The position numbers and the translations under genes are program-made. 64,000 nucleotides of DNA from an uncultured Alphaproteobacteria bacterium (GTDB taxonomy: Bacteria > Pseudomonadota > Alphaproteobacteria > Rickettsiales > UBA1997). The DNA lies in assembly GCA_903937405.1 (NCBI GenBank), contig CAIZZE010000059.1, positions 14,075-78,074 of the forward strand, read 5' to 3'. This document shows, piece by piece, positions 53,663-57,462 of this stretch (position 1 is the stretch's first letter; each line of letters starts with the position of its first letter). The notes under the pieces are model-generated. The model was given only the letters and a program-made list of their open reading frames with translations. It was not told the origin of the DNA and did not search any database.

Positions 53663-56176
53663 TTATTGCCCATCTTCAAACTTCTGCTTCAAATATCTGC
53701 GTCTTTCTGCATCAGCTTCTTTGATTCGCTGTTTTTCTTCAGCGACTCTTTCTTTTTCCAGCTCTCTTAAAATCTCAAAAAGCTGTGGCAACCAAACCGC
53801 TGGAGCAGGATTGGAATTAGATGAATTTGAGTTGGCAGCAATCACCTCTTCCGCCGCAAGCATTGTTATTTCATCAGCTGAACAAATTTTTAGAATCTCA
53901 ACAAATTTTGCTAAATCAATTGAGGCAATTACCGAATCACTGCCGTGCTTAAACAAGAAATGACGCTCAACATCTTCCATCATGCGCACAATTTCGAATT
54001 CTTCATCATTTAAGCCAAATACACTTTTATAACATTGATGAGGATTTTGATTAGGCATAAAAATCTCGGTCGCCAATTGCTTCTGGATTGCCATGGTATA
54101 TCTACTCTCGGCAACTCCTTGAATATTTTCCGAAGTCATAATTACGACACAATTTTTTAGCGACGCTTTATTTAAGAAATCGACAAATTTCGGACCCACA
54201 ACCGGATTATCAAATAAATCCCAAGCCTCATTCAAAACAATGATTGCAGGCGATCCGTCCAGCAAATTTTCAATTCGATAAAGCAAATAATTCACTACCG
54301 GAATTAGGATTTCTTTTTGGTTAAAAATTGTAGTTAAATTAAATGCCAGAATTTGTTCCAACCAATTAATTTCACTTTTAGAACCAAAAACATAGCCAGC
54401 ATTTCCGACGCTCCAGACTTTTATTTTTTCATAAAGTTTGCGAGTTTCTGGCGTATTGAAAGCTTCGGCCGCAAGCGCCATATTATTGGCATTAGAAGTT
54501 AGAATGCGGTCAACAATTTGCGGAATAAATTTGGCTTCCATTTCTAAAATAGGATCGCCGGCAATTGGAATCAGGCTGCTAAAAAACTCGATTAAAAATG
54601 TTTGGTTTTCGCTATTTTTTGGCAATGAAAGTGGATTTAACTGCAAAAATTCTGTCGGCTTGGCATCAGAAGCCATATTGTAGTAGCCGCCGCCTAAAGC
54701 TTTAATAAAAATTTTGGAAGTGCCACTTAAATCAAAATAATAAAGTTTATTGTCAAAACGGCGTGATTGCAAAAGCAGGAAATTTAGCAAAACAGTTTTG
54801 CCCGAACTTTGCGGGCCTAAAATTATAGTATGTCCCAAATTTCCGTCATGGAAATTGAAGAAATAAGGTGTATTTAAAACGGTGCGAAAAACTGTTGCAG
54901 CTGGTCCCCATTTATTGCCGCCGATTAATCCAGCCGGATAATTATGAAGCGCGGCAAAACCGGCAATTTTTCCGGTATTGATTAATTTTTGACGACGTAA
55001 ATAACGGAAATTTCCCGGCAATTGCGACCAGAAACAATGTTCTAAAAATACATCTTCCCGAATCATTACAAAGCCAAGCGAGTTAAACTGTTCCAAAGCT
55101 GATTTAATGTCCTTTTCGAGCTCTTCGCGTTGATGGCTAATGAACATTATTGTAGTTTGTAATTTACCATAATCGGTTGGCAAATCGCGTTTACTTTCAA
55201 CAAAATCAGCTATTCCGCTTAAAGTTCTAAAATCTTCATCGCCACTAACTTGCAGGATGTAATTTTGATATTCGTAAGGATCGAGATCTTTTTTGGAAAA
55301 AGTAAAATCAAAAGATTGAGTAACAATAAATTCAAAAGGCAGCTGTAAAATACGATCGAGCGAAGTTGTAGAAACTTCAAAATATTCTTTCAGCGATAAA
55401 ATTGCGGCGAAATTTTTATTTTTATAACCAACAACTTCCAGCTCGCGATCGCCAAAAGCAACTTTATGGCTCGATAAATCATTGGAAATATCGTTGGCCG
55501 AAAGCGGATAACGCTCTTCGTAAAGATTGATAATTTTTCCAAAAAAACGCATTGGCTCGGAATATAAAATATCATCCCAAGCGTTGATACCAAGAAGTTT
55601 AGCGCCATATTCTTCAGTACCAGAAATAATATCATTAGTGATTTTAGATAATTTTTTATGCGCTTCGCGTAAAAACCTGCTATGCAATGATTTAGTGGAG
55701 GCGTAAGAAAATGAACGAATGAAAGCATTTACATTTACAATTGAAGTATCAAAACCTTCTACAATCACTGTGATATAAAGCTCATTCACATATTGATTGT
55801 CCCATTTATTTGATTCAACCCAGGCATCATTTACTTTTTTGGAAAAGAAATCCTTGAACTCACCTTTCGGTGTAATATTTTTCTTACGACGAATTGTGTT
55901 AAACCAAAATGCAACTTTATTGTCGGAAACATTTTCAGTAATGGCATCGCGCACCGCGTCACGTAGAGAAATTAATTCCGCCGCAACCGAACTATTTCCA
56001 AAACCGGTGATACGGATAATCTGTAGAAGCTCGCCATTCTTGGTTAGAATTGTATTAGGATCAAAGTGGCAAACATAAGGAGTAAAATCCTCATCAGGTT
56101 TTTTTGCCACCAATTTATTGGGATCTGTTTTAGCTTTTTTTACGAGTTTCGATAAGATAAAATCAGGGATATTCAT
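53663..56176 (-). CDS. virB4: type IV secretion system ATPase VirB4 homologue (solitary)
   Basis: 837 aa with Walker A GPQSSGKT (aa 454-461). The Walker-B-like block reads IIVLNEAW (Asn649 where Asp is expected). The N-terminal VirB4/CagE pattern is present. There is no other T4SS gene in the window. Confidence 0.8.
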
Positions 56177-57462
56177 CTTTTTGAAATATCAATATAATCG
56201 CGTTTAACTTCGCCAGTGTAGAGTTGGCGGGGTCTGCCAATTTTGAAAGCTGGATCTTCAATCATTTCTTTCCATTGAGAAATCCAACCAGCTGAACGCG
56301 CGATTGCAAAAATTACGGTGAATAAATTACTTGGAATTCCGAGCGCTTTGTAAATAATTCCGGAATAGAAATCGACATTCGGGAAAAGTTTACGTGAAAC
56401 AAAATATTCATCATTTAAGGCGATTTTTTCAAGTTCCATCGCAATGCCTAGAAGCGGATCATTCTTGATTCCAAGCTCAGCTAAAACTTCATCGCAAGAT
56501 TTTTTCAAAACTGCGGCTCGCGGATCATAATTTTTGTAAACGCGGTGACCAAAACCCATTAAACGGAATGAATCATTTTTATCTTTAGCGCGGGCAATAA
56601 ATTCAGGAATGCGATCTTTAGTTCCAATTTCTTGCAACATTTCCAAAACTTCTTCGTTAGCCCCGCCATGCGCCGGACCCCAAAGTGAAGAGATTCCAGC
56701 TCCAATACAAGCAAAAGGATTTGCGCCCGATGAACCAGCTAAACGAACTGTTGAAGTTGAAGCATTTTGTTCGTGATCTGCATGTAGAACCAAAATCATT
56801 TCCATCGCTTTAGCAATTGTTGGACTAACTTTATGCGGATGATTTGGCTTGTCGAAAAGCATATGCAAAAGATTTTCTGCAAATCCATATTCTTTATTTG
56901 GATAAATCAATGGCTCGCCGATTGAATATTTATAAGCCATCGCAGCCAATGTCGGCATTTTAGAAATGATTTTATAAACCACATCCATACGACCTTCTGC
57001 GTCATGAACATGCATTGAATCATGATAAAAAGCAGAAAGCGATGCAACCGCCCCAACCATTATTGCCATTGGATGCGCGCGCCTTGGAAAGCCGCGATAA
57101 AGAATGCCAATTTGTTCGTGAACCAACATATTTCTGATAATGCCGCTTCTAAATTCTTTATATTGCGCAGCATTTGGTAATTCTTTATTTAACAACAAAT
57201 ATGCAACTTCGAGATATTCGCTTTTTTTCGCTAATTCTTCAATTGAATAGCCGGCGTGGCGCAATACACCTTGATCGCCATCGATAAATGTAATTTTAGA
57301 TTCACATGAAGCCGTCGCCAAAAATCCTGGATCATAAGTGAACATGCCGCTTTCTTTGTAAAGCTGCGTAATGTCGATTACATCCTGACCAATCGTGGCT
57401 TTGCGGATTGGTAAATTAATTTCTTTTCCATTTGGCAAAATTAACTTGGCAGATTCGGTCAT
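56173..57462 (-). CDS. gltA: citrate synthase
   Basis: 429 aa with [23 protein letters not shown] and the NVDFYSG catalytic blocks. Confidence 0.95.

Follow-up and report, generated by a model that had tools for sequence, protein, structure and literature searches.

The principal finding of this work is the identification of a solitary virB4 gene as a divergent, clade-conserved partner of a citrate synthase gene. It lies in a 64,000-nucleotide stretch (the window) of contig C59 of the uncultured alphaproteobacterial assembly GCA_903937405.1. On sequence grounds, the gene is the rvhB4-II of an uncultured freshwater Rickettsiales of a Gamibacteraceae-like lineage, that is, the second VirB4 of the type IV secretion system (T4SS) known as rvh. 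It begins at an ATGA overlap with the stop codon of gltA (Table 1). Taken as a whole, we consider it likely that the window gene is an RvhB4-II orthologue, that its product is a non-catalytic protomer acting with RvhB4-I, and that it is the distal gene of a gltA bicistron. Since RvhB4-II itself has already been described and the current picture is unchanged, the advance is incremental; what is new here is the conserved gltA-rvhB4-II unit, the inverted constraint on the two domains of the protein and the recurrent loss of its Walker residues.

The family assignment is supported by homology to VirB4/TrbE/CagE proteins, which extends over the N-terminal as well as the C-terminal (RecA-like) domain. 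PF03135 matched with E=4.5e-27, and TIGR00929 matched residues 29-799 with 540.4 bits (E=7e-162), below its cut-off of 643.1; the NF010473 score (516) was likewise below its cut-off (1050). Of the two VirB4 genes in the genome, only the copy on contig C9 passes the TIGR00929 cut-off. This canonical RvhB4-I has 795 aa, scores 837 bits and is 32% identical to the window copy. Two VirB4 genes were also present in all 24 congeners and in 16 genomes of the same order but of other families. A maximum-likelihood tree of 75 sequences was rooted with R388 TrwK, the sequence of which was rebuilt from the HMMER alignment; the relatives in it are environmental metagenome-assembled genomes (MAGs) rather than named Rickettsia, Wolbachia, Ehrlichia or Anaplasma. 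It resolved a short-branched clade I (100% support in the Shimodaira-Hasegawa-like approximate likelihood-ratio test) and a long-branched clade II (100%, stem 0.43), and each sampled Rickettsiales genome, including 13 from other families, was represented once in clade I and once in clade II. The window protein falls in clade II. Midpoint rooting, which nested clade I within clade II sequences, was misleading and was discarded; rooting on TrwK gave two clean clades.

Clade II was tied to the literature through the contig names in Table S1 of PMC11077975. Two of its contigs, C-137 NODE_49 and C-132 NODE_19, are exactly those given there as RvhB4-II. The MAG M_DeepCast_50m_m1_063 is listed in the same table by protein accession and marked 'GAMI?', so that the match is at MAG level only; its contig (L042) holds a protein 58% identical to the window RvhB4-II, which may be the listed one. 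The clade II placement and the Table S1 contigs together lead to the assignment of the window gene given above, and the relatives in a scan of public genomes were freshwater and marine MAGs labelled Rickettsiales, the best 80 all being environmental MAGs. The original prediction, made from the window letters, had guessed at a divergent VirB4 paralogue, and this guess is confirmed by the clade II placement, by the TIGR00929 score (540 against 643) and by the canonical second copy on C9.

The nucleotide-binding site of the protein is degenerate. Walker A (GPQSSGKT) is intact, as had been predicted, with Ser for the second Gly of GxxGxGKT and the Lys-Thr pair retained. Alignments to TrwK (MYVFDEFW) and to the RvhB4-I of the same genome (MLVLDEAW) establish IIVLNEAW as the true Walker B; the suspected replacement of the Mg-coordinating Asp by Asn649 (codon AAT, 54232-54230) is therefore real, while Glu650 is retained. 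In the AlphaFold2 model, the beta-strand 644-649 terminates at N649. At the position of motif C, FDLSGTSK replaces FDKDRGxE, motif D has lost the Arg of the canonical LRKxN/RKxN (ASLKN), and motif E has lost its Gln (ATQ to TSE). In all, four of the five VirB4 nucleotide-binding motifs deviate, a broader defect than had been predicted.

The same positions have been lost repeatedly among the orthologues. In RvhB4-I, the Walker A Lys, the Walker B Asp, the Walker B Glu and the motif E Gln are each retained in 20 of 20 sequences. The corresponding figures among 52 RvhB4-II are 46 (at least six independent changes), 35 (at least seven), 36 (at least eight) and 1. Degenerate forms of Walker A in the genus include GSKDFNET and GGDVAQQN, and the DE of Walker B is replaced there by NA, ND, DQ, SE, GE, KE or KN. 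With motifs C, D and E lost as well and the Walker residues repeatedly lost in orthologues, the substitution in Walker B is only part of a more extensive degeneration that has already been published: Gillespie et al. reported mutated nucleotide-binding residues in RvhB4-II and questioned whether it could energise secretion, and the protein is described as lacking conserved ATPase sites and as encoded apart from other rvh loci (PMC4676284; PMC2653234). The window copy, which retains Walker A and has Asn in place of Asp, is an early stage of this decay and may still bind nucleotide. The impairment of the ATPase that had been suggested is thus supported by comparison with these orthologues, four of the five motifs deviating and the Walker residues being lost again and again.

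Two kinds of evidence indicate that the gene has been kept by selection, and suggest for what. Against the closest relative, which is 95% identical, the ratio of nonsynonymous to synonymous substitution rates (dN/dS) was 0.050 for rvhB4-II, 0.041 for gltA, 0.033 for gatB and 0.059 for the ATPase domain; more distant pairs were saturated (dS >2) and were not used. A dN/dS of 0.05 implies that rvhB4-II is functional, and the full-length frame of 820-840 aa is intact in nearly all of the 24 congeners. The constraint is unevenly distributed along the protein. Among 49 RvhB4-II orthologues (51-74% identity), 22.3% of the columns of the N-terminal domain (93 columns) are invariant and only 2.0% of those of the ATPase domain, whereas RvhB4-I at similar divergence has 17.7% and 31.3%, respectively. 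Such an inversion of domain constraint between the paralogues is what one would expect if a pseudo-enzyme were retained for its contacts in assembly, and RvhB4-II is most likely a non-catalytic scaffold.

The predicted structure of the protein retains the architecture of VirB4. Residues 21-801 align with R388 TrwK (PDB 7o41; E=4e-73, HMMER). AlphaFold2 returned a full two-domain fold with a mean predicted local distance difference test (pLDDT) of 78.6 and a predicted template modelling score (pTM) of 0.74, and Foldseek superposed the model over its whole length on the TrwK chains of the assembled R388 machine with template modelling (TM) scores of 0.71-0.76. The window protein thus resembles TrwK (PDB 7o41, 8rtd) in its two-domain fold and in the alignment of the Walker A and Walker B positions. 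In contrast, TrwK, the active ATPase of a conjugation machine, has a DE Walker B together with motifs C, D and E (FDKDRGME, IRKQN, ATQ), and has no C-terminal tail. In the window protein, a tail of about 36 aa follows the WLP motif (residues 795-797), through which both TrwK and RvhB4-I align, ending about 11 aa beyond. Its charged pattern is kept across the genus and the tail is absent from RvhB4-I and TrwK; AlphaFold2 places it at the end of one long helix (residues 792-835). A C-terminal extension of about 60 aa, Asn/Ser-rich and then charged, had originally been proposed; the charged tail stands, its length does not, and the Asn/Ser-rich stretch (781-792) is a variable linker within the canonical C-terminal region, before WLP.

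In the R388 machine, VirB4 is arranged as a hexamer of dimers that binds VirB3 and VirB8, and it is the N-terminal domain of TrwK that builds the VirB4 dimer and docks on VirB3/VirB8. We hypothesize that an ancient virB4 duplication in the Rickettsiales ancestor, which Schön et al. [quoted passage not shown] RvhB4-II would then be a non-catalytic, at best nucleotide-binding, structural or regulatory protomer, possibly pairing with the catalytic RvhB4-I or filling non-catalytic positions in the rvh inner-membrane complex, and the lineage-specific charged C-terminal helix might add contact surface.

A second finding is the link of rvhB4-II with gltA. The overlap of the gltA stop and the virB4 start on the minus strand, recognized in the original prediction, is as it was read there. 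It derives from the final Lys-Arg-stop codons of gltA, AAA AGA TGA (...aaaagATGaat on the minus strand). The peptide that follows the ATG (beginning L.KL.KK) is kept in 49 orthologues, which shows this ATG to be the true start of rvhB4-II. Directly upstream and on the same strand, gltA was found in 45 loci, most of them with a gap of -4 or -1 nt or with one of at most +12 nt, and this junction, either an overlap or a spacer of at most 12 nt, is kept in most members of the genus. The adjacency reaches the C-137 group, where GltA is 60-63% and RvhB4-II 38-41% identical. Overlaps of 4 nt are ordinary in this genome (6.6% of 979 same-strand neighbour pairs); unlike the overlap itself, the conservation of this gene pair over deep divergence is not chance.

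The two genes share a strand, with overlapping stop and start and no room for a terminator between them. A consensus scan for an internal promoter gave 20 sites against a shuffled expectation of 13.7 +/- 3.8, with no excess, and no conserved synonymous block was found at the gltA 3' end of 38 orthologues (third-position entropy 0.95-1.52 over the last 60 codons, mean 1.21). As promoter-like sites are not enriched and the 3' synonymous sites of gltA are unconserved, read-through from the gltA promoter is the simplest reading, and co-transcription of gltA and rvhB4-II, as the original prediction had suggested, appears likely. Transcription would start in the mnmA/gltA spacer, which is presumed to hold the promoter because it is the only upstream non-coding space, and would end at the hairpin before gatB, a gene that lies convergent and downstream, as had been stated earlier. 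This hairpin has a minimum free energy of -25.1 kcal/mol (z = -4.18; equalled by 0 of 200 shuffles). Since no Shine-Dalgarno-like motif was seen at the usual distance, 5-10 nt 5' of the rvhB4-II ATG, in the junction sequence, we propose that rvhB4-II may be translated by termination-reinitiation at the ATGA overlap. Its position in the bicistron would give RvhB4-II steady, housekeeping-level synthesis. In a literature search of limited reach, the gltA-rvhB4-II link was not mentioned.

Several observations weigh against this interpretation of the protein and of its expression, and they have to be set against the rival explanations. As to the protein, the partnership of RvhB4-II with RvhB4-I is inferred solely from the R388 architecture. 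Moreover, neither Walker A nor the Glu of Walker B is damaged, and a large subclade shares Asn649, so that the window RvhB4-II may bind nucleotide or hydrolyse it slowly. A stronger version of this point is that the protein is no scaffold but still a working ATPase, in which Asn649 tolerates Mg-ATP and which drives a separate step in secretion or in the biogenesis of pili. The intact GPQSSGKT and Glu650 and the low dN/dS of the ATPase domain would suit it; the fixation of Asn in a subclade of 60-95% identity suggests selection over drift, and the RvhB4-II of several other families retains canonical GxxGxGKT and DEAW. However, the window protein has lost motifs C, D and E, the motif E Gln is missing from 51 of 52 RvhB4-II, close relatives without the Walker A Lys still retain the gene, invariant columns make up just 2% of the ATPase domain, and a Walker B change from Asp to Asn generally cripples hydrolysis in P-loop NTPases, so that we regard a working ATPase as very unlikely. 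A few MAGs of the genus (G018, G022 and G013) also have the gene broken into two or three fragments. Together with a fragmented copy in G025, an in-frame TAA at locus L027 and the degenerate catalytic motifs, this could suggest a decaying relic, a pseudogene in the making with no function left. This is scarcely conceivable given the dN/dS of 0.05, like that of the flanking housekeeping genes, the frame kept in nearly all congeners, the 93 invariant columns of the N-terminal domain and the confident fold prediction, and the pseudogene reading was rejected on dN/dS and frame conservation. The split copies themselves reflect either assembly error or real decay in some lineages.

As to expression, weak promoter-like hexamers occur inside gltA at 56432-56403 and 56551-56524, rvhB4-II stands behind sucA-sucB instead of gltA in four congeners (G001, G007, G010 and G020), and the gltA/rvhB4-II spacer reaches 160-226 nt in a few relatives. 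The sucA-sucB context and the long spacers imply that tight coupling to gltA is not required; in C-132, rvhB4-II lies behind tolQ. It could thus be argued that the gltA overlap reflects genome compaction only and that rvhB4-II is expressed independently from its own promoter within gltA. Overlaps of this length are common, as noted, the hexamers are weak sigma-70-like matches 230-350 nt upstream of the ATG, a Wolbachia regulator was reported to bind upstream of rvhB4-II (PMC4676284), and the gene functions behind sucB, behind tolQ or after a 226-nt spacer. On balance we doubt this explanation, as the promoter-like sites do not exceed the shuffled expectation, the third-position entropy of the last 60 gltA codons is not lowered, and the two genes stay adjacent even where GltA identity falls to 60%, which is unusual for unrelated neighbours in genomes that scatter all else. 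The bicistron could also be read more boldly, with the dosage of RvhB4-II tied to central carbon metabolism and the protein acting as a dedicated non-catalytic protomer, for example at the outer VirB4 positions of an R388-type hexamer of dimers. The case for such a tie is that rvhB4-II already stood at the 3' end of gltA when lineages of 60% GltA identity had yet to split, and has stayed there, and that the sole departing subclade moved to sucA-sucB, which is also a unit of the tricarboxylic acid (TCA) cycle. We consider it quite unlikely; if true, it would suggest selection for co-expressing a secretion scaffold and TCA enzymes in bacteria without an ATP/ADP translocase.

The remaining T4SS genes were surveyed with family searches for VirB3, B6, B8, B9, B10, B11 and D4 and with tblastn for VirB2, in an assembly of 83 contigs (1.66 Mb, 36.5% GC, 98.6% complete). 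None of these genes matched the window, in agreement with what had been read from it (no virB2/3/6/8-11 or virD4), or the rest of its 113-kb contig C59; the matches lie on other contigs, scattered, with none just beyond the locus (Table 1). Besides the VirB6-like gene of 1017 aa that follows the canonical VirB4 on C9, three more VirB6-like open reading frames (ORFs) of 2343, 1648 and 1448 aa are distributed over C39, C14 and C52, and VirB2-like genes were detected by tblastn on C9 and C48. These features correspond to the hallmarks of rvh, namely duplicated B4, B8 and B9, multiple large B6 genes and scattered loci (PMC10732058; PMC4676284), and the earlier expectation of scattered rvh genes with a duplicated virB4, one copy of it divergent, fits the survey, in which rvh components occupy separate contigs and two VirB4 are present. 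Since rvh genes are scattered throughout, a solitary virB4 is the rule in this genome and no oddity. We rejected the idea that the VirB4 derives from a separate second T4SS or from a conjugative element, the components being single or rvh-typical duplicates, none of them clustered.

The window gene agrees with RvhB4-II as known from previous studies (VirB4b / VirB4-2; Gillespie et al., 2009, 2015; Verhoeve et al., 2024) in being a second, clade II VirB4 beside the canonical RvhB4-I. It is likewise full length, carries mutated nucleotide-binding motifs, including the lost conserved Gln, evolves faster than RvhB4-I, and is encoded apart from all other rvh genes in a genome with duplicated RvhB8/RvhB9 and several large RvhB6. 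It differs from the known RvhB4-II in the clade-conserved gltA unit formed through the ATGA overlap, in an intact Walker A with only the Asp changed within Walker B, and in the charged C-terminal helix, which is about 36 aa long and specific to the clade. Dispersal of the rvh genes also goes further here than in Rickettsia, with B3, B10, B11 and D4 each solitary. For the co-transcription of a housekeeping gene with an rvh gene there is a precedent in the Wolbachia ribA-rvhB8-I operon (PMC4676284), which also joins a metabolic gene to an rvh gene in one unit of a reduced Rickettsiales genome. The metabolic and T4SS genes are different ones, however, and the Wolbachia operon is experimental, whereas gltA-rvhB4-II is inferred from sequence.

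The secretion machine by which Rickettsiales, an order that includes major pathogens and symbionts, are defined has three duplicated components that lack an explanation, among them RvhB4-II. The locus adds comparative data from free-living-like freshwater relatives, in which the catalytic site is lost piecemeal and repeatedly and the N-terminal assembly domain is fixed. It also makes available a natural series of Walker A/B states for testing, and the conserved gltA linkage provides a straightforward, testable example of a housekeeping operon that would express a T4SS component.

Table 1. Features of the gltA-rvhB4-II locus (window positions) and T4SS genes on other contigs of the assembly (contig:positions).
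Feature	Position	Strand	Basis
gltA, type I citrate synthase, 429 aa	56173-57462	minus	NF004126 707.7 bits, TIGR01798 697 bits, full length
rvhB4-II, divergent VirB4 paralogue, 837 aa	53663-56176	minus	TIGR00929, TrwK alignment, tree, AlphaFold2 model
ATGA overlap; gltA stop TGA (56175-56173) and rvhB4-II start ATG (56176-56174) share bases	56173-56176	minus	sequence reading
Walker A, GPQSSGKT, residues 454-461, intact	54794-54817	minus	TrwK alignment
Motif C position, FDLSGTSK replacing FDKDRGxE	54707-54742	minus	alignment to RvhB4-I and TrwK
Walker B, IIVLNEAW, residues 645-652, Asn649 for Mg-coordinating Asp, Glu650 retained	54221-54244	minus	TrwK and RvhB4-I alignments
Motif D/E region, LNKASLKN ... 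VIMTSEN	54125-54175	minus	alignment to RvhB4-I and TrwK
Clade-specific charged C-terminal tail, residues ~801-837 (~36 aa)	53666-53776	minus	after WLP motif
Hairpin, AT-rich, ~76 nt, probable bidirectional terminator	53586-53661	no strand	fills 80-nt rvhB4-II/gatB spacer
gatB, convergent, 3' of rvhB4-II	52125-53582	plus	gene identification
mnmA/gltA spacer, 100 nt, presumed promoter region of the unit	57463-57562	minus	sole upstream non-coding space
mnmA, divergent, upstream of gltA	57563-58678	plus	gene identification
VirB4 canonical, then 1017-aa VirB6-like gene	C9:30887-33274		family search
VirB8+VirB9 pair	C32:18388-19936		family search
VirB8+VirB9 pair, VirB8 divergent	C8:70126-71885		family search
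VirB10	C8:38117-38704		family search
VirB11	C30:27765-28685		family search
VirD4	C72:22088-23911		family search
VirB3	C63:12741-12989		family search

Some further observations concern rvhB4-II loci of related genomes. The copies that are split or carry an in-frame stop are located at G018:C29:9001-11713, G022:C6:8346-10886, G013:C8:2495-4672 and G025:C5:7347-9771, and at L027 (in-frame TAA). Where rvhB4-II follows sucA-sucB, the spacing is 85-157 nt (L039:17-5475; also L009, L010 and L017), and gltA in these four congeners is followed by convergent corC-like and ybeY genes (L133-L136). In other families, RvhB4-II is preceded by one or two TrbC/VirB2 pilin genes and followed by a gene for a VirB6-like or a very large Cys-rich protein, and at these loci (L026:1064-5253, L064:2359-8308, L080:2499-6192, L029, L028 and L032) its Walker A and B are canonical; this neighbourhood looks like the ancestral context of RvhB4-II.

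Within the genome under study, VirB3, VirB10, VirB11 and VirD4 each stand alone amid housekeeping genes, more dispersed than the islets of Rickettsia, and on C8 a CinA-like gene and leuS flank the VirB8-II/VirB9 pair, which is packed between them within 20 nt. The VirB2-like gene on C48 (C48:6437-7567, minus strand) is an ORF of 376 aa with an N-terminal region of about 100 aa resembling VirB2 pilin (tblastn with VirB2 from L080 and L026), which may represent a pilin-domain fusion. In the hairpin between rvhB4-II and gatB, the motif TTTAGGATTTAA occurs twice in direct orientation and its complement once, so the hairpin might be a small repeat element instead of a plain terminator. Finally, the VirB4 genes of L095 and L107, from MAGs labelled Myxococcota and 'bacterium' (GPTGTGKS, LEEGW, LTPN), fall outside both rvh clades, a placement that could result from mis-binning, transfer or a third lineage.

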